Source of the DNA: an uncultured Desulfocurvus sp.
Lineage (GTDB): Bacteria > Desulfobacterota > Desulfovibrionia > Desulfovibrionales > Desulfovibrionaceae
Assembly (NCBI GenBank): GCA_964502805.1
Contig: CAZCYB010000006.1
Coordinates: 19,734 to 83,733, forward strand
Direction: 5' to 3'
Length of the DNA: 64,000 nt
Position 1 is the first letter of the stretch, and each line of letters begins with the position of its first letter. This document shows positions 1 through 64,000 of this stretch, piece by piece. The position numbers and the translations under genes were made by a program. The notes under the pieces are model-generated. The model was not told the origin of the DNA. It worked only from the letters and a program-made list of their open reading frames with translations, and searched no databases.

Positions 1-647
1 GGCGCCACGCTCATGCCCAGGCAGGAATCCACCGGCCCGCACATGCCCAGGTCGGTGATATAGGCCGTGCCCTGCTTGAGCAGCCGTGCGTCGGCGGTCT
101 GCACGTGGGTGTGCGTGCCCAGCATGGCGCTCACGCGGCCATCCAGGTGCCAGCCCATGGAGATCTTCTCGCTGGTGGCCTCGGCGTGGAAGTCCAGCAG
201 GCGGATCTTCACCTCCGGGTGCTCGGCGTCCAGCCGGGCCAAGAGCTCGTCCGCGGCGCGGAAGGGGCAGTCCAGGGCCTGCATGTAGGTGCGGCCCATG
301 AGGTTCAGCACCGCCACCGGTGGCAGCCCCTCGGGGGTGAGCACCATGACCCCGCTGCCCGGCGTTCCGGGCGGGTAGTTGGCCGGGCGGACGAGCCTGG
401 GCTCGCGCGCCATGTACGAGGGCATGTCCTTGAACTTCCAGATGTGGTTGCCGCTGGTCAGGCCGTCCACCCCGGCGCCGAAGAGCTCCTTGGCCCCCTC
501 GGCGGAGAGGCCCAGGCCGCCGGAGGCGTTCTCGGCGTTGGCCAGCACCAGGTCCGCGCCCAGCTCGGCGCGGAGGGACGCCAGGTGCTTCTTCACGGCG
601 TGGCGGCCGGGCCTGCCCACTATGTCGCCAAGGAAGAGGATGCGCAT
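1..647 (-). CDS. YmdB-like metallophosphoesterase (2',3'-cyclic-nucleotide phosphodiesterase family), C-terminus cut by window edge
   Basis: Minus-strand reading from the ATG at 647 gives MRILFLGDIVGRPGRHAVKKHLASLRAELGADLVLANAENASGG...ITDLGMCGPVDSCLGM. This matches the YmdB/TIGR00282 pattern. It lies directly downstream of rny, a common synteny. It is absent from the ORF track because there is no stop inside the window. Confidence 0.8.
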   Translation of the reverse strand, partial: MRILFLGDIVGRPGRHAVKKHLASLRAELGADLVLANAENASGGLGLSAEGAKELFGAGVDGLTSGNHIWKFKDMPSYMAREPRLVRPANYPPGTPGSGVMVLTPEGLPPVAVLNLMGRTYMQALDCPFRAADELLARLDAEHPEVKIRLLDFHAEATSEKISMGWHLDGRVSAMLGTHTHVQTADARLLKQGTAYITDLGMCGPVDSCLGMSVA

Positions 648-663
648 GGGAATTCCTTTGCCT

Positions 664-700
664 GAAAAAAACAGGCGGACCGGGGCGACCCCGATCCGCC
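664..700 (-). terminator. Hairpin plus U-tract between rny and the ymdB-like gene (terminator or attenuator)
   Basis: Minus strand reads GGCGGAUCGGGG-UCG-CCCCGGUCCGCC followed by UGUUUUUUU, 35 nt after the rny stop. Confidence 0.5.
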
Positions 701-734
701 CGATGTGTGCCGGACCGTGCCTGGGCGCGGCCCG

Positions 735-2303
<1,569 letters not shown>

Positions 2304-2498
2304 GCGCTGCTCCTTCCGGTTATATGGACAGGCCGGGTGGCCTGACTGTCGCGCGCGCGGACGTGAGAAATCCGCGGGCGCACGTGTACCGTGTCGACCG
2401 GAGCTTGAGGAGGGCGTCGATGCTGTGGTGCGGCGGAGCGGTTGCGGGGTGCCAGCCGTGCCTGGCCTGTCCTTGCGGACCTGGCCCGGGTTATGTGG

Positions 2499-2674
2499 AC
2501 CCCGGGGCGCCGTGTCGTTGTTGAGTTTTGAACCTCGCTTAGCGAGGTGGGCTCCTCCGGCTCGCCGTCAGGCTCCCCGCTCTGGGCGGGCATGCACACG
2601 GGCAAGCGGCTGGCGGATCCCATTTATTGAGTATTGGCTCAAGAACTCGAAAACAATCACGAACTCCCCAGGGT
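2499..2674 (-). ncRNA. ssrS: 6S (SsrS)-like regulatory RNA candidate
   Basis: Lies in a gene-free 415-nt gap downstream of zapA. The transcript ends ACCCUGGGGAGUUCGUGAUUGUUUU and AAAACUCAACAACGACACGGCGCCCCGGGGU form a long imperfect closing helix. Internal UUGAGCCAAUACUCAAUAAA, and the hairpin CCUCGCUAAGCGAGG followed by GGUUCAA, resemble central-bubble elements of E. coli 6S as I recall that sequence. Exact ends are uncertain. Confidence 0.6.
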
Positions 2675-2718
2675 GACTCCCGCTTTCTCCTATACGCAAG
2701 GCCGTCGGTACCGGCCTA

Positions 2719-2970
2719 TTACTGCCTCTCCAAAAGCTCCTGCATGCGGGCCTCCAGACCCGCAAGCTTGCGGCGGACCTCAAGATAGTCGTCCGCCATT
2801 CCAAGAGCCAGCAAGGTGAGAAGTTTCTCCCTGCTGATGTAGCGCCCGTCCCGGCTCAGGTCCGCAAAGCGTTCCTCAAGCAGGGCCTGGGCCTGTTTGA
2901 TGCGGTTCTCGTCCGCATCGGTCTTGAACGAGAGCTCCAGCCCGTTGACCGTGATGGTGTAGCGCGGCAT
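2719..2970 (-). CDS. zapA: Cell division protein ZapA
   Basis: 83-aa ORF MPRYTITVNGLELSFKTDADENRIKQAQALLEERF... with a coiled-coil tail. Size and pattern are typical of ZapA. Confidence 0.8.
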   Translation of the reverse strand: MPRYTITVNGLELSFKTDADENRIKQAQALLEERFADLSRDGRYISREKLLTLLALGMADDYLEVRRKLAGLEARMQELLERQ

Positions 2971-2982
2971 GGAACGGTTCCA

Positions 2983-3159
2983 TTAATCCAGCGCCGACTG
3001 CACCTTCGAAAGAAGGGCCTCGATGCGGCTTTGGACCTCGTTTTTCCTGCCGAGCTCCGCCTCCAACTGGGCGGCCAGCTCACGGTTGTCCTCTTCCAGC
3101 CGCCGGATGCGCTCCAACAGCTCGCCGAAGCGCGCTTCCAGCCTCTCGATAACTTCCAT
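2983..3159 (-). CDS. Small coiled-coil protein, ZapB-like (58 aa)
   Basis: Hand translation of the minus strand gives MEVIERLEARFGELLERIRRLEEDNRELAAQLEAELGRKNEVQSRIEALLSKVQSALD. It ends 12 nt upstream of zapA. At under 60 aa it is missing from the ORF track. Confidence 0.5.
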   Translation of the reverse strand: MEVIERLEARFGELLERIRRLEEDNRELAAQLEAELGRKNEVQSRIEALLSKVQSALD

Positions 3160-3190
3160 AATCGCTACGTAACCGCTTCCGACGCCGAAA

Positions 3191-4582
3191 TCAAGACTTC
3201 CGGCCCCGGCCCCCGCGGCCCCGGCCCTCGATATTGGCCTGCTTGCCCCGGGCGATGCCCAGGGCGCCCTCGGGCACGTCCTTGGTGATGACCGAGCCCG
3301 CGCCCACCAGGGCGTTTTTGCCCACCTTTACCGGGGCCACCAGGGCCGTGTTGCTGCCGATGAAGGCGCCTTCGCCGATCTCTGTGAGGTGCTTGTGCGT
3401 GCCGTCGTAGTTGCAGGTGATGGTGCCCGCGCCGATGTTGGCCCCGGCCCCCACCTGGGCGTCTCCCAGGTAGGTGAGGTGGCTGGCCTTGGCCCCGGGG
3501 CCCAGGGTGGCCTTCTTCATCTCCACGAAATTGCCCACCCGGGCGCCGTTTTCCAGCACCGCGCCGGGGCGCAGGCGGGCGTAGGGCCCGGCAATGGCCC
3601 CTGCGGCCAGGTCCGCGCCCTCCAGGTGGCAGTGCTCCCGCACCTCGGCTCCGGGGGCCAGGCGGCTGTCCACGACCTGCGTGAAGGCGCAAACGCGCGC
3701 GCCGCGCCCGACGACGCTCCCGCCCAGGATGCGGCAGGGGCCGAAGAGTTCCGCGCCGGGTTCGATGACCGCGCGCGGCCCGACGACCACGGCCTGGGGG
3801 TGGTGGATGAGCGCGCCAGCGGCCAGGTGGCGCATGACCAGGCCCGAGCGCAGGTGCTCCTCGGCCTGGGCCAGTTCCAGGGGGGAGTTGACCCCCAGGA
3901 GGTCGTGGGCGCCCTCGCGCCGCAGGGCATGGACAGAGAGCCCGGCCTGCACGGCCAGGCCCACCAGGTCGGTGATGTAGAACTCCCCGGCCTTGTTGGC
4001 GCTGGTGAGAGTGAACAGCAGAGACTCGATGGCGGCCACGCGCAGGCAGAACAGCCCTGTGTTCACCTCGCCGGTGTCCGGCCCGTGCGTCGCCGGGTCG
4101 AAGTCCTTGGCCTCCACGATGCCCGCCACCTCGCCATCGGCCCCGCGCACCACGCGGCCAAAGGCCCCGGCGGCGGGCAGCACGGCGGTGAGGAAGGCCA
4201 GGTCCGCGCCCTCGTGGCAGGCGGCCACAAGCTCGTTCAGGGCCTCAGCGGTCACCAGGGGGGTGTCGCCGTTGACCACCAGGCAGTGGCTGGCCCCGGA
4301 GGCGCGCACGCCCTCCCAGGCCACCTGCAGGGCGTGGCCCGTCCCCTTCTGCTCCGCCTGGACAACGAAGCCGCCCATGAGCTCCGGGTGCGCCTTGGCC
4401 ACCTGGTCCTGCCCGTGGCCGACCACGGTGAGCACGCTGGCGGCCACCTGGCCTGCGGCCCGGGCCACGTAGTGCAGCATGGTCTCGCCCAGGAGCGTCT
4501 GGAGCACCTTGGGCTTGTCGGAGTGCATGCGCGTGCCCTTGCCCGCGGCGAGGATGACGGCGACGGTGGATTTGTCTGACAT
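3191..4582 (-). CDS. glmU: Bifunctional GlcNAc-1-phosphate uridyltransferase / GlcN-1-phosphate acetyltransferase
   Basis: 463-aa ORF with an N-terminal LAAGKGTRM nucleotidyltransferase motif and C-terminal hexapeptide (left-handed beta-helix) repeats. It sits in the classic position after the atp genes. Confidence 0.95.
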   Translation of the reverse strand: MSDKSTVAVILAAGKGTRMHSDKPKVLQTLLGETMLHYVARAAGQVAASVLTVVGHGQDQVAKAHPELMGGFVVQAEQKGTGHALQVAWEGVRASGASHCLVVNGDTPLVTAEALNELVAACHEGADLAFLTAVLPAAGAFGRVVRGADGEVAGIVEAKDFDPATHGPDTGEVNTGLFCLRVAAIESLLFTLTSANKAGEFYITDLVGLAVQAGLSVHALRREGAHDLLGVNSPLELAQAEEHLRSGLVMRHLAAGALIHHPQAVVVGPRAVIEPGAELFGPCRILGGSVVGRGARVCAFTQVVDSRLAPGAEVREHCHLEGADLAAGAIAGPYARLRPGAVLENGARVGNFVEMKKATLGPGAKASHLTYLGDAQVGAGANIGAGTITCNYDGTHKHLTEIGEGAFIGSNTALVAPVKVGKNALVGAGSVITKDVPEGALGIARGKQANIEGRGRGGRGRKS

Positions 4583-4644
4583 GGGGCCCCCTGAGGAAAA
4601 TGCGGCGCAACCGTGCGCCCAGCCTGTGTACCTGAAGCGGTCGC

Positions 4645-4676
4645 AAAAAAAAAGCGGGCCGGAAAATCCGGCCCGC
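4645..4676 (-). terminator. Rho-independent terminator after atpC
   Basis: Minus strand reads GCGGGCCGG-AUUUU-CCGGCCCGC followed by nine U residues. Confidence 0.8.
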
Positions 4677-4723
4677 CTTGTATCACGGGTGTAGTCTGGC
4701 CGCCTCGGGGCGGGCGGAACCTG

Positions 4724-5146
4724 CTAGCAGGTGCCGGCCTTCTCCCCGGAGGTGCGGCAGCTCATACGGGCCAGGGACCGACGCAGCGCGGCCTGGGCAC
4801 GGGCGTAGTCGATCTTCTCCTGGGTCCGAGGCAGCCGCTGCTGCGCACGCTCCTGGGCCTTGCGGGCGCGCTCCACATCGATCTCAGCCGCCTTTTCCGC
4901 GGCCTCGGCCAGGATGGTGACCTTCTCAGGGCTGACCTCGGCGAAGCCTCCGGAAACAAAGATGTAGTGGGTCTTGCCCGCATCCTTGTAATAGAGGTTG
5001 CCGACGCCCAGTGCCGAGAGGAAGGGGATGTGGTTCGGCAGCACGCCGAACTCGCCCATGGCACCGGGAGCCCCGACATAGTCAACGTCCTGCGAGAGGA
5101 CCTTGCGGTCGGGCGTCACGATTTCAAGCAACAGCTTCTTGGACAT
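4724..5146 (-). CDS. atpC: F1 ATP synthase epsilon subunit
   Basis: 140-aa [31 protein letters not shown]..., immediately after atpD. Confidence 0.9.
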
Positions 5147-6571: not shown

Positions 6572-7447
6572 TTAACCTTTCAGCGCTTCAGAGCCGCCGA
6601 CGATATCCATAAGGTCTCTGGTGATGGCAGCCTGGCGCGTCTTGTTGAACAGAAGCGTCAGGGACCCGATCATGTCGTCGCAGGCGCGGGTGGCGTTGTC
6701 CATGGCGCTCATGCGGGCGGCGTGCTCGCTTGCGCTGGTGTCCAACATGCCACGGTAGACCTGGACTTTGATGAAGCGGGGCAGGAGTTCGGCCAACAGG
6801 CCCTCGACGGAGGGCTCGTAGATGTACTCCTTGCCGGAACCAGAGCTTTCACCGCCGCCGGGGGTACCGCTGATGGGCAGGATCTGCTGCACCACCGGGA
6901 CCTGCCGGGCTATGCTGATGAATTCGCCATACACCAGGATGACCTCGTCCAGCGTGCCGTCGAGGAAGGAGCTGATGAGCTCCTGCCCGAGCTTGCTCGC
7001 CAGGGTGAAGTCGAAGTGGTTCATCACGTCGCGGTACTGCACGGCGATCTCGTACTCGGCCTTGCGGACGGCGTCCCGGCCCTTCTTGCCCACGCAGTAG
7101 AACTTGACGCTCAGTCCCTCGGCCTGCTTCTCCTTGCCGAGCTTCAGTCCAGCCTTGATCAGGTTGGAGTTGAAGCTGCCGCAAAGGCCGCGGTCGCTGG
7201 TGACCATGACGATGCCAACGGTCTTCTTTTCGTCGCGCTTGGCCAAGAGCGGATGGACCGACTCGTCCGCCCCGGTCGCCAAGTCGCCAAGCATCTCGTA
7301 GAACTTCTGCGCGTACGGCTTGAACCGCTCGATGCGGCTCTGCGCGTTGCGCAGCTTCGCCGAGGCCACCATGTTCATGGCCTTGGTGATCTGCTTGGTC
7401 TTCTTGACCGCGCCTATTTTCGTTTTGACGTCCCTCAGGGAAGCCAT
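6572..7447 (-). CDS. atpG: F1 ATP synthase gamma subunit
   Basis: 291 aa with N-terminus MASLRDVKTKIGAVKKTKQITKAMNMVASAKLR. Confidence 0.95.
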   Translation of the reverse strand: MASLRDVKTKIGAVKKTKQITKAMNMVASAKLRNAQSRIERFKPYAQKFYEMLGDLATGADESVHPLLAKRDEKKTVGIVMVTSDRGLCGSFNSNLIKAGLKLGKEKQAEGLSVKFYCVGKKGRDAVRKAEYEIAVQYRDVMNHFDFTLASKLGQELISSFLDGTLDEVILVYGEFISIARQVPVVQQILPISGTPGGGESSGSGKEYIYEPSVEGLLAELLPRFIKVQVYRGMLDTSASEHAARMSAMDNATRACDDMIGSLTLLFNKTRQAAITRDLMDIVGGSEALKG

Positions 7448-7465
7448 TGCACCCTCCTGCGCCGG

Positions 7466-8974
7466 TTAGGCGCGGAAGCCCTTCTTGAACTCGTCGATGG
7501 CGGCCTTCAGGCGGCCTTCGAGGTCCGCGTCCAGCGCCTTCTTCTCCAGGATGTCCTTCAGGATGTCGGCCTTGGAGTTGCGCATGAACTCCACCATCTC
7601 GCTTTCGAACTTGCGGACGGCCTCCAGCGGCACGTCGTCCATGAAGCCGCGGGTGCCCGCGTACAGGGAGACGACCATCTCCTGGACCGGCATGGGCTGG
7701 TACTGCGGCTGCTTCAACAGCTCGACCATGCGGGCGCCGCGGTTGAGCTTCTGCTGGGTGGCCTTGTCCAGGTCGGAGCCGAACTGCGCGAAGGCGGCGA
7801 GCTCGCGGTACTGGGCGAGGTCGAGGCGCAGGGTGCCGGCCACCTGCTTGATGGCCTTGATCTGGGCGGCGCCGCCGACGCGGGAGACCGAGAGGCCGAC
7901 GTTGATGGCCGGGCGGATGCCGGCGTTGAACAGCGCGGGCTCCAGGTACACCTGGCCGTCGGTGATGGAGATGACGTTGGTCGGGATGTACGCGGACACG
8001 TCGCCGGCCTGGGTCTCAATGATGGGCAGGGCGGTCAGCGAACCGGCGCCGAGGCTGTCGTTCACCTTGCAGGCGCGCTCCAGCAGGCGGGAGTGGAGGT
8101 AGAACACGTCGCCGGGGAAGGCTTCGCGGCCGGGGGGGCGGCGGAGCAGCAGCGACATCTGGCGGTAGGCCACGGCCTGCTTGGACAGGTCGTCGTAGAT
8201 GATGAGCGCGTGCTTGCCGGAGTCGCGGTAGTACTCGGCCATGGTGCAGCCGGAGTACGCGGCGATGAACTGCAGCGGCGCGGGCTCGGAGGCGGTGGCG
8301 GAGATGATGGTGGTGTACTCCATGGCACCGTAGCGGCGCAGGGTGTCCGCCACGAGGGCGACGGTGGCCTTCTTCTGGCCGATGGCCACGTAGAAGCACT
8401 TCACGTCGCCGCCCTTCTGGGCCAGGATGGCGTCGATGCAGACCGCAGTCTTGCCGACCTGGCGGTCGCCGATGACCAGCTCGCGCTGGCCGCGGCCGAC
8501 GGGGGTCATGGCGTCGATGGCCTTGAGGCCGGTGGCCATGGGCTCGTGGACCGACTTACGGGCGACGATGCCGGGGGCCTTCAGTTCGACCGGGCGGGTC
8601 TCCTTGGCGGCGATGGGGCCCAGGCCGTCGATGGGGTTGCCGAGCGGGTCGATGACGCGGCCGGAAACGGCCTCGCCCACGGGCACGGAGAAGATCTTTC
8701 CGGTACGCTTGACCGGGTCGCCTTCCTTGATCTCGGTGCACTCGCCAAGGAGCGCGACGCCGACGTTATCCTCTTCGAGGTTGAGCACCATGCCCATGAG
8801 GCCGCCGGGGAACTCGAGGAGCTCCATGGCCATGGCGTTCTTCACGCCATGCACGCGGGCGATGCCGTCACCGACGTACAGAACGGTGCCGGTCTCGCTC
8901 ATCTCCACGCGGGACTCGTAATTCGAGATCTGTCCCTCAATGATTTTGCTGATTTCTTCCGCTTTGATCTGCAT
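7466..8974 (-). CDS. atpA: F1 ATP synthase alpha subunit
   Basis: Walker A GDRQVGKT and N-terminus [12 protein letters not shown]. The ATG at 8974 is preceded by GAGGGG and is preferred over the track's GTG at 8986. Confidence 0.96.
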
Positions 8975-28607: not shown

Positions 28608-28821
28608 GGACGGGACCTCCGAAGCGGACGCGGGGGCTGCCCCGCGCTGCGGAGGTGGGCCCCTTTCGATGCCTGCGAGGTGAGCTGACGGGCTGGGACC
28701 GAAAGGTGTCCCGCGCCTTGCTTCGGCGCTGCGCCCCGGTGAGGAGTGGTTCCCCCGCTTCCGGCCACGGGCCTGGAATTCGGCAGGGCACTTCATACTT
28801 GGCCGGGCGAGAGGGTGTCAA
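28608..28821 (-). promoter_or_regulatory. c-di-AMP riboswitch (ydaO/kimA class) with promoter and SD-sequestering helix, leader of kup copy 1
   Basis: The minus strand has TTGACA-N18-TATGAA. It then reads GCCGAAUUCC...AGCGGGGGAACCAC...CCGGGGCGCAGCG...ACACCUUUCGGUCCCAGCCCGUCAGCUCACCUCGCAGGCAUCGAAAGGGG. This matches remembered ydaO-motif blocks (GCCGAAUCC, GGGGGA-CC, GGGG-G, CCCG-CAGCUAACCUCG-AGGC). The anti-SD ACCUCCG pairs with the SD CGGAGGU 8 nt before the AUG. Confidence 0.8.
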
Positions 28822-30876: not shown

Positions 30877-31094
30877 GAAAATACCTCCGGTACGAGTGGG
30901 TGCGGGGGAGGCCCCGTCCAAACCGGAGGTCTTCCCCTTTCGACGCCTGCGAGGTTAGCTGACGGGCTCGGACCGAAAGGTGTCCTACGCGCTGATGCGC
31001 GATGCGCCCCAAGGGATGTGGGTCCCCCGCTCCCGGGAAACGTTCCCGGAATTCGGCAACGCGACGATTACGCCCGGAGCCGCGGGGCTGTCAA
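30877..31094 (-). promoter_or_regulatory. c-di-AMP riboswitch (ydaO/kimA class) with promoter and SD-sequestering helix, leader of kup copy 2
   Basis: The minus strand has TTGACA-N18-TAATCG. It then reads GUUGCCGAAUUCCGGGAACGUUUCCCGGGAGCGGGGGACCCACAUCCCUUGGGGCGCAUCGCGCAUCAGCGCGUAGGACACCUUUCGGUCCGAGCCCGUCAGCUAACCUCGCAGGCGUCGAAAGGGG. A perfect 9-bp helix, ACCUCCGGU/ACCGGAGGU, covers the SD. Confidence 0.85.
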
Positions 31095-56614: not shown

Positions 56615-56656
56615 GTTGGCGGGAACATAGCCCATGCGCCTTGCGCTGTCACCGGG

Positions 56657-57652
56657 CTAGCGCAGTGAAAGAAGTGCGGTCGCCACGTCCTCGGGCAGGC
56701 GGATGGGCGCGCGGGGGATGCGGGCGAGGTCGAAGCCCGGCACGAGGTCGCGCGGGTGCAGGGGGCGCGCTTCGGGGACGAGCCCTGCCAGGGACGCCAG
56801 GTAGCCGGTGATGGCCCGGGGCGTGGCGCCCCGGTCGCGCAGCGCGGCCAGGGTGAGCGAGCCGTGGCGCTTGGCCAGGCGCTCGCCCTGGTGGTCCAGG
56901 ATGAGCGGCAGGTGGGCGTAGGCGGGGGCAGGCGCGTTGAAAAGATCGTAGAGCAGCATCTGGCGCGGGGTGCTGGCGAGGATGTCGTCGCCGCGCACCA
57001 CCTGGGTGACGCCCATGTGGATGTCGTCGATCACCACGGCCAGCTGGTAGGCCACCACCCCGTCGGAGCGGCGCAGGGCGAAGTCGCCGCCGCAGTCCGC
57101 GAGGGTGAAGCGCTGCGGCCCTGCCACGAGGTCCGTGAAGGCCACTTCGCCCGCCCCGCAGTCCAGGCGCAGGCAGGGGGTGCGGCCCTGGGCCAGCCTG
57201 CGGGCGCGCTCCTCCGGGGCCAGGAGGCGGCAGGTGCCGGGATAGACGGGCGAGCCGTCGCCCACAAGGGGGGCATGGGGCGCGCTGGCCAGCTCGCGCA
57301 GCTCCCTGCGCGTGCAGAAGCAGGGGTACACCCGCCCGGCGCGCTCCAGGGTGGCGATGGCCCCGGCGTAGGCGTCCAGCCGGGCGCTCTGCTCGTATGG
57401 GCCGCGCGGGCCGCCCAGGTCCGGGCCCTCGTCCCAGTCCAGGCCCAGCCATTTCAGGTCCCGGATGATGTCCTGGGCGTACTCCCGGCGCGAGCGGTCG
57501 GGGTCGATGTCCTCCATGCGCAGGACGATCCCGCCCCCGGCCGAGCGCGCCGCCAGCCAGGCCAGCAGGAAGGCCCAGGCGTTTCCCAGGTGCAGGTGCC
57601 CTGTGGGGCTGGGGGCCAGCCTGCCCCGGACTATTGGCGCGCTCGATTCCAT
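56657..57652 (-). CDS. gluQ: Glutamyl-Q tRNA(Asp) synthetase
   Basis: 331 aa with RLAPSPTGHLHLGNA and RMEDID. It is a truncated GluRS-like catalytic domain with no anticodon-binding domain. The start is 2 nt after the upstream stop. Confidence 0.88.
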   Translation of the reverse strand: MESSAPIVRGRLAPSPTGHLHLGNAWAFLLAWLAARSAGGGIVLRMEDIDPDRSRREYAQDIIRDLKWLGLDWDEGPDLGGPRGPYEQSARLDAYAGAIATLERAGRVYPCFCTRRELRELASAPHAPLVGDGSPVYPGTCRLLAPEERARRLAQGRTPCLRLDCGAGEVAFTDLVAGPQRFTLADCGGDFALRRSDGVVAYQLAVVIDDIHMGVTQVVRGDDILASTPRQMLLYDLFNAPAPAYAHLPLILDHQGERLAKRHGSLTLAALRDRGATPRAITGYLASLAGLVPEARPLHPRDLVPGFDLARIPRAPIRLPEDVATALLSLR

Positions 57653-57654
57653 GC

Positions 57655-58968
57655 TCACCTGCCCGTCTCGCTGCCCAGGCACATGAGCTGGCCCACGGCC
57701 CAGGGGCAGTGCCCGCAGGGCACGCTCTCGCCCAGGCAGTCCTGCTCGAAGGGCCCGGCGGCGCCGCAGGCGTCGCTGCACATGCCCATGTCGCAGTCGC
57801 CGCAGGCCGGGTACTCCCCGGCCCTGGCGCGCTGGCGGAAGGCCGCCCAGGCCGGGCCGTTCCAGAGTTCGGCGAGGGGGGTGGCGGCGATGTTGCCGAG
57901 GTGCGCGGGGTGTACGCGCTTGGGTTCGCCGTAGATGCGGCATTCGTAGCCGTGCCAGAGGAAGTGGCAGGGCGCGGCGTTGCCCTGCCAGTCGAGGAAG
58001 GCGGCGTCCGCCTCGATGAAGGCGCAGCGGCGGTCCCGGGCGCTGTCCGGGGCGGAGAGGGCGGGCAGGCGCAGGTCCAGGCCCGAGGCGGCTGCGCGCT
58101 GCCGGGCCTGCGCGAACAGGGCCTCCAGCTCCGCGAGCCGGGCGTAGTCCGTGCGCGCCAGGCGCCCCAGGTTCAGCCACAGGCCCTGCTCGTGGGCCTG
58201 CTGGTGCATGCGCCGGGCCAGGTCCACCAGGGCGTTCTCCTCGGGACCGCGCCGGAAGCGCATGGCCGCGCGGGTGAGGTCGGCCAGGTCCAGGCCCCTG
58301 GCCTCGGCCTCGCTCCGCCAGGCGGAGAAGAGGCGCAGGGCCGCGCCGCTGCACGGGTGGAACAGGGCCTCGGGCTCCTGCCCGGTCGTGGCGGGCAGCA
58401 GGTGGGTCACGAGCAGGAAGTCCAGGCCCGTGGCGCTGGCCCAGTCCACCAGGGTAGGCAACTGGAAGGCGTTGCCGCGCATGAGCACCACCTCCGCGCC
58501 CAGGCGCAGGGTCCTGCCCTGGGCCGTGGCGGCCTGGCGCAGCAGGGCGCAGCCGCGCGCGGCGACGTCCTCCTGGCCCGGCCCGTGGCCGTGCCCGGCG
58601 CCAGGGCCGCAGGCGTCGCCGTCCACGGAGAAGCACACGACGTCCAGCCCGGCGCTGGCGAGGCCTTCGGCGATCTCGGGGGTGAGCAGCAGGCCGTTGG
58701 TCTGCAGGCCGCACCAGCCTTCCCTGGGCTGGCAGGCCTTCACCAGGGCCACCATGCGTGGCAGGTCCGGGTGGGTCAGCGGCTCGCCCATGCCGTTCAA
58801 CACCACGGCCTCGGCGCGGGCGAGGTCCGGGGCCAGGCGCTGGAACAGGGCGAGGTCCATGTGCCCCTCGCCGCCCTGCCAGCCCGGCTGGTTCTTCACG
58901 CACATGGGGCAGGCCAGGTTGCAGCGCGTGGTGGTCTCCACGAAGAGGGTGCGCGGGAAGTCGCTCAT
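57655..58968 (-). CDS. Radical SAM / SPASM-domain enzyme, substrate unknown
   Basis: Radical SAM cluster motif TTRCNLACPMCV and the GMGEPLTHPD motif. The C-terminus is Cys-rich: CHFLWHGYEC...CGDCDMGMCSDACG...CGHCPW. Confidence 0.85.
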   Translation of the reverse strand: MSDFPRTLFVETTTRCNLACPMCVKNQPGWQGGEGHMDLALFQRLAPDLARAEAVVLNGMGEPLTHPDLPRMVALVKACQPREGWCGLQTNGLLLTPEIAEGLASAGLDVVCFSVDGDACGPGAGHGHGPGQEDVAARGCALLRQAATAQGRTLRLGAEVVLMRGNAFQLPTLVDWASATGLDFLLVTHLLPATTGQEPEALFHPCSGAALRLFSAWRSEAEARGLDLADLTRAAMRFRRGPEENALVDLARRMHQQAHEQGLWLNLGRLARTDYARLAELEALFAQARQRAAASGLDLRLPALSAPDSARDRRCAFIEADAAFLDWQGNAAPCHFLWHGYECRIYGEPKRVHPAHLGNIAATPLAELWNGPAWAAFRQRARAGEYPACGDCDMGMCSDACGAAGPFEQDCLGESVPCGHCPWAVGQLMCLGSETGR

Positions 58969-58986: not shown

Positions 58987-60078
58987 TTAGGGTTTGCAGT
59001 CCACGTGGCACACGCCGGCCAGGGTTCCGGGGTCGTTCGGGAACCAGCGGCGCTTGAGCCACAGGGCCACGTTCACCAGCCCGATGAGCACCGGCACCTC
59101 CACCAGCGGGCCGATGACCGCGGCGAAGGCCTGGCCGGAGTCCAGCCCGAACACGGCCACGGCCACGGCGATGGCCAGCTCGAAGTTGTTGGACGCGGCG
59201 GTGAAGCTCAGGGTGGCGCTCTGGGCGTAGGTGGCCCCCGCCTTCCAGGAGAGCCAGAACGAGGCCAGGAACATGACCAGGAAGTAGATGAGCATGGGCA
59301 GGGCCACGCGCAGCACGTCCAGGGGCAGGGCCACCATGACCTCGCCCTTGAGGGAGAACATGACCAGGATGGTGAACAAGAGGGCCACCAGGGTGATGGG
59401 CCCGATCCTGGGCGCGAACTCCGTGTCGTACCATTCCCGGCCCTTGAGCTTGAGCCCGATGATCCGCGTGGCCAGCCCGGCCAGGAAGGGGATGCCCAGG
59501 TAGATGAACACGCTCTCGGCGATCTGGCCCATGGAGATGTCCACCGTCGCGCCTTCCAGGCCGAGCCAGCCGGGCAGCACGGTGAGGAAGACCCAGGCGT
59601 AGAGCGGGAAGAACAGCACCTGGAAAACGGAGTTGAAGGCCACCAGCCCGGCGCAGTATTCGCGGTCGCCCCCGGCCAGGTCGTTCCAGACGATGACCAT
59701 GGCGATGCAGCGGGCCAGGCCGATGAGGATCAGGCCGGTCATGTAGGCGTGCTGGCCGGAGAGGAAGGCCACGGCAAGGCCGAACATGAGGATGGGCCCG
59801 ATGACCCAGTTCTGGACCAGGGACAGCGCCAGCACGCGGCCGTTGCGGAACACCTGGCCCATGAGCTCGTAGCGCACCTTGGCCAGGGGCGGGTACATCA
59901 TGAGGATGAGGCCCGCGGCTATGGGCACGTTGGTGGTGCCGCTCTGCATGCCGCCCACGGCCTGCTTGAGCGCCGGGAAGGCGTAGCCCGCCGCGATGCC
60001 CGCGAACATGGCCGCGAAGATCCACAGGGTCAGCCAGCGGTCCAGGAAGGACAGTTTGCGCGTCACGGACTCGGACAT
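58987..60078 (-). CDS. acr3: ACR3-family arsenite efflux transporter
   Basis: 363 aa beginning [24 protein letters not shown]...[15 protein letters not shown], with about 10 TM segments. Confidence 0.92.
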
Positions 60079-60103
60079 GGGTGCCTCCTTTGCTTTCTCG
60101 GGT

Positions 60104-60571
60104 CTACTTGGTCTTGCCGGGGCCGTTCAGGGCAGCCATGAAGTCGCGGGCCTCGTCGCCGCGCAGGAGCTCCGCCAGGCCCACCAGCCCGCCCACAAGG
60201 TAGCAGGCGTTGTAGCCCTTGGTGCTCAGGTAGACCATGGCGATGCTGGAGCGGTCGATGTGCGGGCAGGCCGTGACGATGACCTTGTCCCTGGGCAGTT
60301 CCCCGAGCCGGGCGGGCAGCTCGTTGAGGGGGATTTTCAGGGCGAAGCCGGGCCCCCAGGCCCGCTGCTCCTCGGGGAAGCGGATGTCCACCAGCACGGC
60401 CTGCTTTTTCACCAGCATGGCCAGCAGTTCCTTGCCCGAGCACTTCATTGTCTTGCGGGTCTCGTAGTCGAAGTCGCGGACGTAGGCGTCGAGGCTCATG
60501 GGCTCCTGGGCCAGGGCGGGGCGCGCCGTCAGCAGAAGCAGCGCGGCCAGCAGCAGGGCGGGAATTCTCAT
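60104..60571 (-). CDS. Periplasmic single-domain rhodanese (sulfurtransferase-like)
   Basis: Signal peptide [21 protein letters not shown]. Has [10 protein letters not shown] and the active-site loop CPHIDRS. The ATG is preceded by GGAGA. Confidence 0.8.
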
Positions 60572-60594
60572 GCGATTCTCCAGTGATTGTTTGC

Positions 60595-61317
60595 TCAGTT
60601 CAGCCCAACGCCCAAGAGCGGCGAGACGAGGAAATACACGCCCAGGAGGCCCACCAGCGCCCCGGCGGCGCGGCGAACCCACAGGCTGCCGCCGGAGAAG
60701 CCCTCCATGAGCCGCCGGGCCAGGGCCGCGGAGCTTCCGGCCAGGACGATGGGCAGGCAGTGCCCCAGGGCGAAGGCCAGGATGAGCAGGAAGCCCTCCA
60801 GGGCCCGGCCCTGGAAGGTGATGAGCGCCAGCATGGGCGCGAGGAAGCCGAAGGTGCAGGAGCCGGACAGCAGGCCGTAGCCCAGGCCCAGGGCCAGGGC
60901 GCCGGGCAGTCCGCGCAGGGTCAGCCGCGCAAGGGCCCCGCCGCCCAGACGGCACCTGGCCACCCCGAGCATGTCCAGGGCCAGCCAGAGCAGCGCAGCG
61001 CCCACGGGCAGGGTCCACCAGGGGCCGATGTCGCCCAGCATGCGGCCCAGCAGGGCGCAGGCCAGGCCCACCAGCGCGATGGTGGCGAACAGCCCCAGGG
61101 TGAAGGCCAGGGCGTAGCGCACGGCCTCGCGGCCTTCCACCAGCCGCCCCTGCCCGGCCACGTAGCCCACCATCAGCGGGATGGAGGCCAGGTGGCAGGG
61201 GCTGAACAGCACGCTCACCAGCCCCCACAGGAAGGCCCCGGCCAGCGCCAGGGCCAGGCCGGACATGCCGTCCAGGGCCATCCAGGCGTTGATGGTGAGC
61301 AGCAGCTGGTCGAACAT
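60595..61317 (-). CDS. ccdA: CcdA/DsbD-family transmembrane thiol-disulfide electron transporter
   Basis: 240 aa with six TM segments. The two signature Cys are in LFSPCHL and SGSCTFGF. Confidence 0.85.
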   Translation of the reverse strand: MFDQLLLTINAWMALDGMSGLALALAGAFLWGLVSVLFSPCHLASIPLMVGYVAGQGRLVEGREAVRYALAFTLGLFATIALVGLACALLGRMLGDIGPWWTLPVGAALLWLALDMLGVARCRLGGGALARLTLRGLPGALALGLGYGLLSGSCTFGFLAPMLALITFQGRALEGFLLILAFALGHCLPIVLAGSSAALARRLMEGFSGGSLWVRRAAGALVGLLGVYFLVSPLLGVGLN

Positions 61318-61329
61318 GTTCCCGCCCCG

Positions 61330-61710
61330 CTATTTGGCCAGCAGCAGGTTCAGCCTGGCCGAGATGGCCTGCTTGTCCATGAAGCCCTCGTGGCGCGAGA
61401 CCTCGCGCCCGCTCCTGTCGTAGAAGATCTGGGTGGGGATGGCCCGGATGCCGAACCGCTTCGCCGCGTCGTAGTCCTCGCGCACGTCGATGAACACCAC
61501 CGCCGCCCGGCCCCTGTACTCGCGTTCCAGCTCCACCAGGATGGGCGCCATCATCTTGCAGGGGATGCACGTCTTGGCGCCCAGGTCCACCATGGTCACC
61601 ATGCCCTTCACCGGCACGGCGGGAGAGGCGGGCGCCGCCAGGGCGGGCGCGCGCAGCAGCCCGGCGCCCAGCAGGACCGCGAGGCACAGCAGGGCTATGC
61701 GCCGAGCCAC
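61330..61710 (-). CDS. Exported thioredoxin-fold protein (CIPC active site)
   Basis: Signal-like segment ARRIALLCLAVLLGAGLL, then DLGAKTCIPCKMMAPIL...IPTQIFY. The GTG start at 61710 was chosen; the ATG at 61749 is also possible. Confidence 0.78.
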   Translation of the reverse strand: MARRIALLCLAVLLGAGLLRAPALAAPASPAVPVKGMVTMVDLGAKTCIPCKMMAPILVELEREYRGRAAVVFIDVREDYDAAKRFGIRAIPTQIFYDRSGREVSRHEGFMDKQAISARLNLLLAK

Positions 61711-61940
61711 GCCAGCACGTCCTTCTTGGAAGGCACCCTGCCCGAGCACTTCACCACGCCGTCCACCACCACCGCAGGGGTGGCGAACACGCCCAGCATG
61801 GCCATCTCCTGGAAGTCGGAGACCTTGACCACCTCGGCGCTGTTCCTGATGTCCGGCCCGGCCTCGGCCACGGCCTCACGCACCAGCCTCTCCGTCTCGT
61901 GACATTTGGGGCAGCCCGGCCCCAGCACCTTGATCAGCAT
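61695..61940 (-). CDS. TM0996/MTH895-type small thioredoxin-like protein (redox-active disulfide protein 2)
   Basis: 81 aa: MLIKVLGPGCPKCHETERLVREAV...ATPAVVVDGVVKCSGRVPSKKDV. Confidence 0.8.
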   Translation of the reverse strand: MLIKVLGPGCPKCHETERLVREAVAEAGPDIRNSAEVVKVSDFQEMAMLGVFATPAVVVDGVVKCSGRVPSKKDVLAWLGA

Positions 61941-61951
61941 ATGGTTCGCTC

Positions 61952-62554
61952 CTATTTTTTCAGCTCGGCCACGATGCCCGAGAGCGGCCGTCCGTCCGGG
62001 GTCTTGGCGCCCGGGTTGATCTCGATGAGCCTGCCCCAGGTGGCGGCGGCCCCGGCCTTGTCGCCGGTGTCGTGCAGCTGCACCACGCCCATGTTGTACA
62101 GGGCGTTCTCGTGGCGGGGGTTGATGGCCAGGGCGGCGTTGAAGGCGTCGATGGCCTTCCCGGGCTGCTTGTCCTCGCGGTGCATGATGCCCAGGTCCGT
62201 CCACACGTCCGGGCTGGCCTTGCCCAGGCCCAGGGCGGTCTCGTAGGCGCGGATGGACAGCTTGGCCTGGTGGGTGTCGAAGTACAGGTTGCCCAGCTCG
62301 ATCCACTGGGCCTGGTCCTTGGGGTTGGCGGCGGTGGCGGCCTCCAGCTCCTTGATGCGCGCAAGCTCGGCGGCGTGGTCGTGGCCGTCCGCCCCGGGGC
62401 CTTCCGGCTGGGCCTGGCCCATGGCCTGGGCCTTGGGGGCCGCCGGGGCCTTGAGCTCCATGAACACCGTGCCGCCGTAGAAGCCCACGGCCAGGGCCAC
62501 CAGCACCGCCGCAATGAGTTCGCCCTTGCCGAAGGTCCGCGCTTTCTCCGCCAT
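61952..62554 (-). CDS. Membrane-anchored TPR-repeat protein (CcmH/NrfG-like appearance)
   Basis: N-terminal TM segment LIAAVLVALAVGFYGG. TPR-like repeats follow: WIELGNLYFDTHQAKLSIRAYETAL, WTDLGIMHREDKQPGKAIDAFNAAL, NALYNMGVV. Confidence 0.7.
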   Translation of the reverse strand: MAEKARTFGKGELIAAVLVALAVGFYGGTVFMELKAPAAPKAQAMGQAQPEGPGADGHDHAAELARIKELEAATAANPKDQAQWIELGNLYFDTHQAKLSIRAYETALGLGKASPDVWTDLGIMHREDKQPGKAIDAFNAALAINPRHENALYNMGVVQLHDTGDKAGAAATWGRLIEINPGAKTPDGRPLSGIVAELKK

Positions 62555-62591
62555 GTGCTCTCCTTGTGCCGCCCTCGCCTGGGGGCGGCGG

Positions 62592-62987
62592 TTATTTCAG
62601 TTCGCTGGCCGCCAGGCGCCCGGCGCGCAGCAGCAGTTCCTCGGGCAGGGCCTCGTGCTCCTGGCCGTCCACGCACAGGGTCCGGCAGTCCGTCTGGCCG
62701 CCCAGCATGTCGCAGCAGGACTGGCAGTGGTTCATGCCCACGGCCACCTCGTGCCGTTCGCCCAGGATGTCCTCCACGGCCCGGCCGTTGAAGAACACGC
62801 GGTTTGACTCCTCCACCGCGAAGGGCGGCAGGGCCTTTTCCGTCAGAACCACCTCGATGTCCAGGGGGGCCAGTTCGGCGCGCAGGGTCTCGGCCATGCG
62901 GCGCACGCTCTGGCCGGTGTCACCGCAGCGCTGGCAGGTACCGCCGTCCACGGTCACGCGCTGCCACAGGATTTCCAGCCGCTTCAT
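62592..62987 (-). CDS. DUF2703-like Cys-rich small protein
   Basis: 131 aa with CQRCGD near the N-terminus and CQSCCDMLGGQTDCRTLC later. It sits directly after the permease, a pairing I recall for DUF2703. Confidence 0.65.
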   Translation of the reverse strand: MKRLEILWQRVTVDGGTCQRCGDTGQSVRRMAETLRAELAPLDIEVVLTEKALPPFAVEESNRVFFNGRAVEDILGERHEVAVGMNHCQSCCDMLGGQTDCRTLCVDGQEHEALPEELLLRAGRLAASELK

Positions 62988-62997
62988 GGCGTTTCTC

Positions 62998-64000
62998 CTA
63001 CAGGATTGCGTTGAACAAGAAGCCCACGAGCATGATGCCGGAGCCCACCACGCCCACGAAGGTCCAGATGAGCCGGGGCTTGAGCACCTTGCGCAGGATC
63101 ACCAGCTCCGGCAGGGAAAGGGCGATGACGGCCATCATGAAGGCCAGCACCGTGCCCAGGGCCGCGCCCTTTTCCAGCAGGGCGTGCACCACGGGCACGA
63201 TGCCAGCGGCGTTGGAATACATGGGCACGCCGATGGCCACGGCCACGGGCACGCTCCACCAGGCGCCCTTGCCCATTATGGAGGCCAGGAAGCCCTCGGG
63301 CACGTAGCCGTGGATGCCCGCGCCCACGGCGATGCCCGCCACCACCCAGGGCCAGACCTTGCCCACGATGTCGCGCACGGCGGCCCAGCCGGCGTCCAGC
63401 CGCCCGGCCCAGGTCGGCTCCGGGCCCGCCTCGCCGCCGGTGGCGTGCACGTTCTTCACCCAGCCCTCCAGGTGCTCCTCCATGCCCAGCTTGCCGATGA
63501 CCAGGCCGCTGACGATGGCCACGGCAAGCCCGGTGCCCATGTACAGGGCCGCCACCTTCCAGCCCAGCAGGCCATAGAGCAGCACCACGGCGATCTCGTT
63601 GACCATGGGCGCGGAGATGAGGAAGGAGAAGGTGACGCCAAGCGGCACACCCGCGCCCAGAAAGCCTATGAACAGCGGCACGGCGGAGCAGGAGCAGAAG
63701 GGCGTGACGATGCCCAGCAGGGCGGCCAGCACGTTGCCCACGGCGGTTCTCTTCCCGGCCAGCAGCCGCCGGGTGCGCTCCGGGGTGAAGAAGCTGCGGA
63801 TGACGCCCACGCCGTAGACCACCAGGGCCAGGAGCAGCAGCACCTTGGGCGTGTCGTAGAGGAAGAACTCCACGCTGGCGGCCAGGTGGGTGCCGCGCTC
63901 CAGGCCCAGGGCGGAGTAGGTCAGGGCGGCGGCCAGGCCGGGCAGGCTTGCGTAGGCCAGCCACCAGGCCGCCAGCCCACCGGCCAGGGCGGCCAGCCTG
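62998..64000 (-). CDS. ArsP/YraQ-like (UPF0718) permease, N-terminus beyond window
   Basis: Contains FFLYDTPKVLLLL...GIVTPFCSCSAVPLFIGF...SAPMVNE. The reading frame stays open and hydrophobic upstream of the track's GTG at 63873 (…LAAWWLAYASLPGLAAALTYSALGLERGTHLAAS), so the gene probably starts beyond 64000. Confidence 0.85.
   Translation of the reverse strand, partial: RLAALAGGLAAWWLAYASLPGLAAALTYSALGLERGTHLAASVEFFLYDTPKVLLLLALVVYGVGVIRSFFTPERTRRLLAGKRTAVGNVLAALLGIVTPFCSCSAVPLFIGFLGAGVPLGVTFSFLISAPMVNEIAVVLLYGLLGWKVAALYMGTGLAVAIVSGLVIGKLGMEEHLEGWVKNVHATGGEAGPEPTWAGRLDAGWAAVRDIVGKVWPWVVAGIAVGAGIHGYVPEGFLASIMGKGAWWSVPVAVAIGVPMYSNAAGIVPVVHALLEKGAALGTVLAFMMAVIALSLPELVILRKVLKPRLIWTFVGVVGSGIMLVGFLFNAIL

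Follow-up and report, generated by a model that had tools for sequence, protein, structure and literature searches.

Near one end of a 64,000-nucleotide stretch of DNA from an uncultured member of the genus Desulfocurvus (GenBank assembly GCA_964502805.1; contig CAZCYB010000006.1, forward-strand positions 19,734 to 83,733), hereafter called the window, a close-packed series of minus-strand genes brings together a PF03773 permease, the arsenite efflux permease ACR3, two thioredoxin-like proteins, CcdA, a rhodanese and a radical SAM (rSAM)/SPASM enzyme (Table 1). This cluster is almost certainly an extended arsenic resistance (ars) operon. Gene families were called by means of Pfam and NCBIfam models, and the membrane and signal segments of the window proteins were read from hydrophobicity. 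On this basis, the ten genes named in a first-pass annotation of the same DNA, as well as their order on the minus strand, are each backed by a recognized family, and the spacing that it described, with intergenic gaps of 2-37 nt and one 16-nt overlap (between the genes for Trx3 and the secreted thioredoxin), is as stated. The range of 58987-64000 that it gave for the cluster holds the first eight genes; the other two, at 56657-58968, lie outside it. Tight spacing runs on into murJ, and thus the limits of the unit cannot be set from spacing by itself; no terminator-like site was found on the minus strand in any gap of the cluster. The open reading frame (ORF) of the permease has no start in the window, its frame being open up to base 63999, and the cluster is therefore truncated by the window edge. 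Within the 37-nt gap between the DUF2703 and TPR genes (62555-62591), a GC-rich inverted repeat (62567-62590, eight G-C pairs) could form a hairpin in the mRNA; there is no T-run after it on the transcribed minus strand, and so it is not terminator-like.

Table 1. Genes at the end of the window, in order of transcription, with the models that identify them
Gene product	Position	Strand	Basis and remarks
PF03773 (ArsP_1/YraQ-type) permease, FCSCS motif	62998 to beyond 64000	-	Pfam ArsP_1, 246.9 bits; 5' end outside window
DUF2703 protein	62592-62987	-	Pfam DUF2703, 105.5 bits
Membrane-anchored TPR protein	61952-62554	-	TPR family matches; single N-terminal membrane segment
Trx3, small CPKC thioredoxin-like protein (MTH895/ArsE family)	61695-61940	-	Thioredoxin_3; TIGR00412, 85.4 bits (cut-off 62)
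CIPC thioredoxin, predicted secreted	61330-61710	-	PF00085, 52.2 bits; signal-peptide-like N-terminus
CcdA (DsbD transmembrane core)	60595-61317	-	PF02683 DsbD_TM, 51.8 bits (cut-off 27.1)
Single-domain rhodanese, predicted secreted, CPHIDRS loop	60104-60571	-	PF00581, 30.3 bits (cut-off 22.2)
ACR3 arsenite efflux permease	58987-60078	-	TIGR00832, 437.7 bits (cut-off 282.8)
Radical SAM/SPASM enzyme	57655-58968	-	TIGR04311, 456.8 bits (cut-off 400)
GluQRS (gluQ)	56657-57652	-	Neighbour, not operon member

The truncated end can be seen in the four closest relatives that were read, i.e. two metagenome-assembled genomes (L015 and L017), the assembly GCA_029980345.1 (L176) and the type strain of Humidesulfovibrio mexicanus (L182; FZOC01000004.1), the proteins of which are 57-93 % identical to those of the window. 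In the three close relatives that were aligned, ACR3 is approximately 92 % and the permease 81-83 % identical to the window protein, and the ACR3 of H. mexicanus falls in the same 90 %-identity cluster as that of the window. In all four relatives, arsR, an arsC of the low-molecular-weight protein tyrosine phosphatase (LMW-PTP) type (LMWPc) and the permease gene directly adjoin one another in that order. The ArsR of L017 contains ELCACE, a cysteine motif of the As(III)-binding type, and its gene is preceded by a promoter-like site (TTGACA-17-TATTGT) and a GGAGGA ribosome-binding site. The operon is present in the cultured strain H. mexicanus DSM 13116. With the first two genes taken from the relatives, the reconstructed order is arsR-arsC-permease(FCSCS)-DUF2703-TPR-Trx3-secreted Trx(CIPC)-CcdA-secreted rhodanese-ACR3-rSAM/SPASM. 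As judged from this comparison of sequences, the window on balance probably holds the nine distal genes of an arsenic (soft-metalloid) resistance operon under ArsR control, the arsR gene and thioredoxin-coupled arsC gene of which would be situated just past base 64000. None of ArsR, ArsC, ArsA and ArsD is encoded in the stretch examined, where the end of the window interrupts the cluster. The first-pass annotation had guessed that a regulator might lie just beyond 64000, and the position of arsR upstream of the permease gene in the four relatives bears it out; its statement that the cluster differs from a canonical ars operon in having neither ArsR nor an arsenate reductase is true of the window and most probably reflects an edge effect.

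At the downstream side, a second arsC follows the rSAM/SPASM gene in L176 and L182, and thus the rSAM/SPASM gene lies inside the ars operon. Membership of gluQ, which had been counted as the tenth gene, was rejected because its place and orientation are not kept among the close relatives; the gene is inverted in L176, absent from this location in L182 and undetected after the rSAM gene in L015. The sole sigma-70-like site found in the 53-64 kb interval, at 56624-56652 on the minus strand, covers the gap between gluQ and murJ along with the start codon of murJ (56635), and murJ may therefore own a promoter.

Two members of the cluster are permeases. ACR3, the arsenite efflux pump of the cluster, scores above the cut-off of its model and carries an RCIAMV motif with Cys124. 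The second permease belongs to PF03773 and has the cysteine pair of the FCSCS motif, which recurs in 44 of the 45 permease homologues that adjoin the rhodanese family. Within NCBIfam, no equivalog model of ArsP, the methylarsenite efflux permease, matched this protein, and its scores are below the cut-offs of SaoE (134 versus 325) and of the SO_0444 family (104 versus 300). Full-length relatives of the permease are 370-395 amino acids long and have a cytoplasmic N-terminal extension of approximately 90-100 residues with a CxC motif, either PCSCQ or PCACQ (L017, 6251-6550; L015, 6270-6500); the CxC-bearing part of this extension falls outside the window. The adjoining DUF2703 gene occupies the same position in L015, L017, L176 and L182, and its product, which has seven cysteines (CQRC, CQSCC and C..C) and no hydrophobic segment, is predicted to be cytoplasmic. 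A sequence search of the PDB gave no useful match to it. DUF2703 has been classed as a thioredoxin-fold domain and is fused to ArsD in other proteins (PMC3091736), and a DUF2703 gene also exists in an arsenate-induced ars cluster of Rhodococcus. For the permease, the DUF2703 protein is a candidate partner in metalloid binding or redox chemistry.

The next part of the cluster encodes what appears to be a route for thiol-reducing power across the cytoplasmic membrane. Trx3, with its CPKC motif, is a member of the ArsE family and matches the structure of MTH895 (PDB 1ILO, E = 5.8e-10); the name ArsE reportedly comes from the ArsEFG system of Chen, Zhang and Rosen (2019), in which ArsE is reported to act with ArsF and ArsG on nitroaromatic arsenicals. 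Signal-like N-termini are present on the CIPC thioredoxin and the rhodanese and absent from Trx3 and the DUF2703 protein, and so the export of the former two, which had been proposed from the outset, holds up as a prediction. In the CIPC thioredoxin, the N-terminal hydrophobic, signal-like segment ends in ALA-A, the CIPC motif is found in 52 of 61 members of the family, and the nearest solved structures are TrxA-type thioredoxins. CcdA has six hydrophobic segments, along with Cys41 (SPCH) and Cys154 (GSCT), as befits the DsbD_TM family. The PF00085 thioredoxin encoded beside it, given its predicted export, would supply CcdA with an extracytoplasmic CxxC acceptor. It is likely that these proteins constitute a cytoplasm-to-periplasm thiol relay that works as part of the resistance.

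The rhodanese, whose catalytic residue is Cys102, represents a distinct and tight family. Members, which are 55-90 % identical, come from the Desulfovibrionales, Geobacterales, Desulfuromonadales, Acidobacteriota and others. In a set of 1.84 billion proteins, no more than 33 representatives (at 50 % identity) have matches of E <= 1e-30. The loop CPH[KIYN]DR[SA] is kept in 79 of 80 family members, with Cys102 as the sole invariant cysteine. A search by tblastn revealed no plasmid-borne homologues. By sequence, the nearest solved structures are the rhodanese domains of an NADH-dependent persulfide reductase (Npsr; 3NTA), a CoA-persulfide reductase (8A56) and CoADR-RHD (3ICR), followed by GlpE. 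Comparison of folds, done with an AlphaFold model of the protein (pLDDT 84.7), returned the same neighbours, the best matches being sulfurtransferases of a single domain and the rhodanese parts of persulfide reductases. Orthology to GlpE or PspE is not indicated, as the protein scores 24.2 bits against the 102 required by the GlpE model, and PspE matches the family weakly (E = 0.0095). A six-residue CX4R loop is typical of sulfurtransferases, whereas the Cdc25/Acr2 arsenate reductases have a seven-residue CX5R loop. The loop of the window protein, CPHIDR, has six residues, as in single-domain sulfurtransferases, and the family members examined likewise have CX4R. Neither a phosphatase nor an arsenate reductase nor Cdc25/Acr2 occurs among the 50 structural matches listed for the model; a role as a periplasmic arsenate reductase of the Acr2/Cdc25 type was ruled out on the basis of this loop length and these structural neighbours. 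Both the sequence and the predicted structure point to a protein of the sulfurtransferase type.

The rhodanese gene is absent from L176 and L182. Across ACR3 and the rhodanese (59000-60500), the G+C content is 0.66-0.68 versus 0.70-0.75 on either side; this dip and the lack of the gene in two close relatives are consistent with an insertion of the rhodanese or with its loss in those relatives. In L182, a TauE/SafE-family anion exporter (6840-7754) lies between Trx3 and the secreted thioredoxin. In another locus, L131, the ORF that follows CcdA encodes a strongly hydrophobic N-terminus and may resemble the L182 exporter; if alike, it would be a second link between the module and sulfur anions.

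Evidence that these genes belong together comes from their recurrence in other genomes. A profile scan for the rhodanese in species-representative genomes gave at least 580 matching stretches, and all ORFs were clustered in 83 loci from other genomes (the 80 best and three others). Besides ArsR (63 of the 83 loci) and Trx3 (62), the products encoded there were CcdA (58), the thioredoxin (57), the FCSCS permease (45), ACR3 (31), a CDF exporter (25), ArsC (22) and an RND exporter (at least 14), and 66 loci had some metal or metalloid exporter; moreover, 79 of the 86 ArsR copies bear a CxC[DE] motif. Where the rhodanese homologue has 5 kb or more of sequence on either side, as in 41 loci, the genes located within 5 kb of it, nearly always on the same strand, included those for Trx3 (35 loci), the permease (29), CcdA (28) and the thioredoxin (27), and Trx3, the thioredoxin and CcdA were together within that distance in 27 loci. 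The grouping of these genes is far beyond chance, and it upholds the earlier suggestion that they form a co-conserved unit and not a set of independent housekeeping genes. The module is present in hundreds of genomes and metagenome contigs, the carriers being mostly Geobacterales, Desulfuromonadales, Desulfovibrionales and Geothrix. Its arrangement varies. In the Geobacter-type locus L014, the same genes are reordered after ArsR as ACR3-CMD-DUF2703-permease-Trx3-Trx-CcdA-rhodanese. At 1-4869 of that locus, genes for ArsR, a cytochrome c7 and a molybdopterin oxidoreductase, along with those for a PhnD-like binding protein and its GGDEF partner, stand beside the module in a region that may be an arsenate-respiration (arr) island. 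In L010 (4758-10525), a rhodanese 77 % identical to that of the window is part of an ArsR-headed cluster of different make-up, in the order Trx3, DGC (PF08859), MauE, GDSL lipase, Trx, CcdA, CDF exporter, rhodanese and MacB-type ABC exporter, and the Rad52, PDDEXK and DUF932 genes alongside suggest a mobile element. As seen by tblastn, L016 has Trx3, Trx, CcdA and rhodanese spaced as in L010.

A reverse survey, for which the CIPC thioredoxin served as the anchor and metagenome contigs as the material, gave 28 loci with enough downstream DNA, and CcdA was encoded directly after the thioredoxin in 26 of them. Within the 26 thioredoxin-anchored loci of at least 8 kb, a permease was found in 22, Trx3 in 20, ArsR in 18, ACR3 in 11 and ArsC in six. 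The core unit is thus ArsR-permease-Trx3-Trx-CcdA; the rhodanese needs this core, and the core is independent of the rhodanese.

These surveys bear upon two other accounts of the genes. The first, which had been put forward in the first-pass annotation, is that of a self-contained system centred on the periplasm and directed at thiophilic metalloids or reactive sulfur species (thioarsenate, selenite, tellurite or polysulfide), operating with neither cytoplasmic arsenate reduction nor ArsR control. The lack of arsR and arsC in the stretch, the predicted export of the thioredoxin and rhodanese, and the sulfurtransferase character of the latter would suit such a system, but arsR and arsC stand directly before the permease gene in each of the four close relatives, ArsR is encoded along with the module in 63 of the 83 loci, and no selenium- or tellurium-linked gene recurs near the module. 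It is, as a result, highly improbable. The second is the proposal of Castillo and Saier (2010), whereby CcdA, thioredoxin and Trx3 provide a cytoplasmic electron supply to a thioredoxin-dependent ArsC, with no transmembrane role. In their report, arsC is present in seven of the eight cases (PMC2963123). Furthermore, the close relatives of the window encode an ArsC of the LMW-PTP type, which Trx3, being cytoplasmic, could serve. However, most CIPC thioredoxins have a signal-like N-terminus and should not meet a cytoplasmic ArsC, the accompanying rhodanese is also predicted to be exported, and ArsC occurs in only 22 of the 83 rhodanese-anchored and six of the 26 thioredoxin-anchored loci, which together leave this proposal, too, with a very low probability.

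Several points weigh against an arsenic operon in which all of these parts act in concert. The arsR and arsC genes are absent from the window itself and have been placed beyond its end on the basis of the relatives. The relay mostly occurs without the rhodanese, which was encountered in just one of the 28 thioredoxin-anchored metagenome loci, with no conserved gene in its place after CcdA, as well as being missing from L176 and L182. Given this rarity, the rhodanese is not the main purpose of the relay; the idea that it is the main client was rejected, and it is an optional add-on to the relay, outside the core. There is an aspartate in the rhodanese loop, which is uncommon where an anionic sulfur donor, for instance thiosulfate, has to be bound. 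Finally, the rhodanese-thioredoxin-CcdA set is also found with exporters of the CDF (25 of the 83 loci) and RND types, L010 and L013 being examples, and it is therefore not strictly arsenic-specific.

That last point leads to the rival of most substance, namely, that the module is a general periplasmic defence against soft metals, akin to the copper-induced Scs system, in which periplasmic thiols are guarded or repaired against zinc, cadmium, copper and metalloids, and arsenic is one inducer among several. In keeping with this, CDF exporters and RND exporters (the latter in at least 14 loci) are common companions, L010 and apparently L016 lack ACR3 and join a rhodanese with 77 % identity to that of the window to ArsR, Trx3, Trx, CcdA and a CDF exporter, and the nearest named relatives of the permease are the metal exporters SaoE and the SO_0444 copper/zinc family. 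In the lineage of the window, however, the identifiable specificity markers all pertain to arsenic (an ArsR with ELCACE, two arsC genes and ACR3), and a general defence of this kind is considered a real but less probable option, which overlaps with the extended ars operon more than it excludes it.

The TPR protein, which has zero cysteines and is known only in the Desulfovibrionaceae lineage, raises a further alternative, i.e. that CcdA, the secreted thioredoxin and a CcmH/NrfG-like TPR protein serve housekeeping cytochrome c maturation and lie beside ars genes by chance. The TPR protein weakly matches TPR_CcmH_CycH and NrfG, and its relatives are named CcmH/NrfG by JGI; also, the module resides mostly in Geobacterales, Desulfuromonadales, Desulfovibrionales and Geothrix, which are rich in multihaem cytochromes. 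On the other hand, the match to TPR_CcmH_CycH (30.7 bits) is under the cut-off of 42, the thioredoxin is TrxA-like and not of the CcmG/ResA/TlpA kind, the cluster has no ccm or ccs genes, the neighbours in the relatives are ars genes throughout, and distantly related taxa as well as metagenomes show Trx-CcdA linked with ArsR, the permease and Trx3. In Desulfovibrio aminophilus (L175), moreover, the TPR gene lies between those for the permease and Trx3, inside an ArsR-headed permease-Trx3-CcdA-Trx unit. Cytochrome c maturation as the primary role was rejected on the basis of the thioredoxin type, the sub-threshold TPR match and the gene contexts, and it is very unlikely overall; in a weaker form, it is possible that the relay shields the CXXCH thiols of apocytochromes from arsenite. 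Both the TPR protein and the rSAM/SPASM enzyme belong to the extended ars operon as genuine accessory members that are specific to this lineage.

The rSAM/SPASM enzyme has both the Radical_SAM and SPASM domains, a CxxxCxxC motif at residues 16-23 (Cys16, Cys20 and Cys23) and a Cys-rich C-terminus, and it belongs to TIGR04311, a family labelled as a radical SAM/SPASM 'putative metalloenzyme maturase'. Its gene comes after ACR3 in the window, L015, L017, L176 and L182, and in L176 (9083-10375) and L182 (10110-11408), it is located between ACR3 and the second arsC. In L179 (6001-7347), a gene whose product is 36 % identical to the window enzyme lies between arsC and an arsA/arsD fusion, and related rSAM enzymes adjoin ACR3 or Trx-CcdA in L133, L172 and L121. 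Members of TIGR04311 that have no ars linkage exist in L177 and L178 (Desulfocurvibacter africanus and Deferrisoma camini). An rSAM/SPASM enzyme of the TIGR04311 type is a recurrent member of the ars operons of anaerobes.

From sequence that supports the protein families, their predicted topology and their linkage to ArsR, ArsC and ACR3 in the relatives, we infer the remainder of a working mechanism. Based on the ELCxCE motif in the ArsR of the relatives, arsenite would free the promoter of ArsR and thereby derepress the operon. Arsenate would be reduced in the cytoplasm by ArsC, for which Trx3 is a candidate reductant, and the resulting arsenite would exit via ACR3. The FCSCS permease, as suggested by its family, may be a second exporter, for a thiol-reactive arsenical or metal, that is possibly fed by the DUF2703 protein. 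In line with what is known of the CcdA/DsbD family, and with the predicted topology, CcdA would take up reducing equivalents from a thioredoxin in the cytoplasm and pass them on to the secreted CIPC thioredoxin, which in turn may hold extracytoplasmic cysteines in their reduced state during the release of arsenite, the single-cysteine rhodanese being one client here. The pairing of rhodanese and thioredoxin is reminiscent of a split periplasmic persulfide reductase or sulfurtransferase, in that the rhodanese could take sulfane sulfur from polysulfide or thiosulfate; the thioredoxin might then release the sulfur from the loaded rhodanese as sulfide, or the sulfur might go to arsenite, such that exported arsenite would encounter sulfide or become a thio-arsenic species. 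Sulfur handling as such is plausible for the rhodanese; this particular sulfane-sulfur chemistry is conceivable but doubtful. Decidedly less likely still is a scenario in which the rhodanese, CIPC thioredoxin and CcdA make or dismantle thio-arsenic species at the exit of ACR3 while the rSAM enzyme does an O2-independent arsenic reaction, be it the cleavage or formation of an As-C bond or the modification of a cysteine in a partner protein. In Pseudodesulfovibrio mercurii ND132, arsenic induces an arsR-arsP-arsE operon, and the organism also produces a presumed thioarsenical, the route to which was explicitly left open (bioRxiv 10.1101/2022.10.17.512643). The list of arsenic-resistance genes in Fusibacter includes a pyridine-nucleotide-disulfide oxidoreductase with a rhodanese domain (PMC9751042), which is possibly a Gram-positive parallel.

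Parts of this gene set have precedents. The purely bioinformatic work of Castillo and Saier (2010) had already assigned CcdA, thioredoxin and Trx3 to ars operons; it dealt with eight cases and suggested the feeding of ArsC (PMC2963123). Their clusters likewise have CcdA, thioredoxin and a TIGR00412 protein with ArsP-type permeases, ACR3 and arsC under ArsR; the report has 0 occurrences of rhodanese, and its CcdA passages say nothing on thioredoxin export, an rSAM/SPASM enzyme or a TPR protein, terms that were not searched directly (PMC2963123). The window cluster adds these parts. The arsR-arsP-arsE operons, such as operon C of ND132, also have a PF03773 permease followed by a PF13192/TIGR00412 protein under ArsR, but CcdA, a secreted thioredoxin and a rhodanese are not described there.

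Other systems offer a likeness in mechanism. In sulfur oxidizers, SoxV, which is a CcdA, feeds the periplasmic thioredoxins SoxW and SoxS, and some sox clusters encode the rhodanese-like SoxL. The Sox and window systems thus share a CcdA homologue that would serve a secreted thioredoxin and, through it, the upkeep of a periplasmic cysteine-based sulfur carrier, as well as a periplasmic rhodanese; however, the window type is ArsR-regulated and associated with metalloid exporters, and no gene in the clusters examined was identified as sox. The ScsABCD proteins confer copper tolerance, and DsbD, acting with DsbC and DsbG, protects single cysteines, including that of the periplasmic rhodanese PspE. 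These systems have in common with the window cluster a membrane DsbD-type reductase, periplasmic thioredoxin-fold proteins and a link to thiophilic metals, and they furnish a precedent for a DsbD-dependent, single-cysteine rhodanese, albeit one that matches the window family weakly. In contrast to them, the window cluster has only the CcdA core with a TrxA-like thioredoxin, and both the class of inducer and the taxa are different. Lastly, in the fused persulfide reductases and in GlpE with thioredoxin, the persulfide on the rhodanese cysteine is discharged by a neighbouring dithiol/disulfide centre, as could be the case here; yet the fused enzymes are cytoplasmic single polypeptides that use FAD and CoA, whereas the reductant in the window system would be a separate, secreted thioredoxin recharged by CcdA.

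In the literature searched, there was no report of the rhodanese, TPR protein or rSAM/SPASM enzyme as members of ars operons. CcdA, rhodanese, radical SAM and DUF2703 all go unmentioned in a survey of ars genes from 2018, and literature searches on rhodanese, ccdA and arsenic, on thioarsenate and rhodanese, and on the arsenic island of Geobacter sp. OR-1 yielded no description of the module. Apparently, these three proteins are accessory members newly noted in a type of ars operon that has been known since 2010. Arsenic resistance is usually described in terms of cytoplasmic reduction and subsequent export, and this operon type adds machinery outside the cytoplasmic membrane; even on the conservative reading, i.e. 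the protection of periplasmic thiols during arsenite efflux, the defence against metalloids would gain a new layer. The operon type is common in the iron-, sulfur- and sulfate-reducers of sediments and aquifers, which control the mobility of arsenic in groundwater and paddy soils. If the rhodanese and thioredoxin do handle sulfane sulfur by the arsenite exporter, they would provide a genetic handle on the microbial formation or consumption of thioarsenic, and if the scenario of thio-arsenic species and an rSAM reaction were true, it would bring the first enzymology of biological thioarsenate turnover along with a new anaerobic arsenic enzyme. Cultured carriers of the operon type include H. mexicanus DSM 13116, which has no rhodanese gene, Geobacter sp. 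OR-1, which does have one, and Desulfovibrio aminophilus.

Elsewhere in the window, and unrelated to the cluster, the minus strand has three Rfam matches that exceed the gathering score, namely, a 6S RNA (2495-2677) and two c-di-AMP riboswitches (28656-28795 and 30929-31068).

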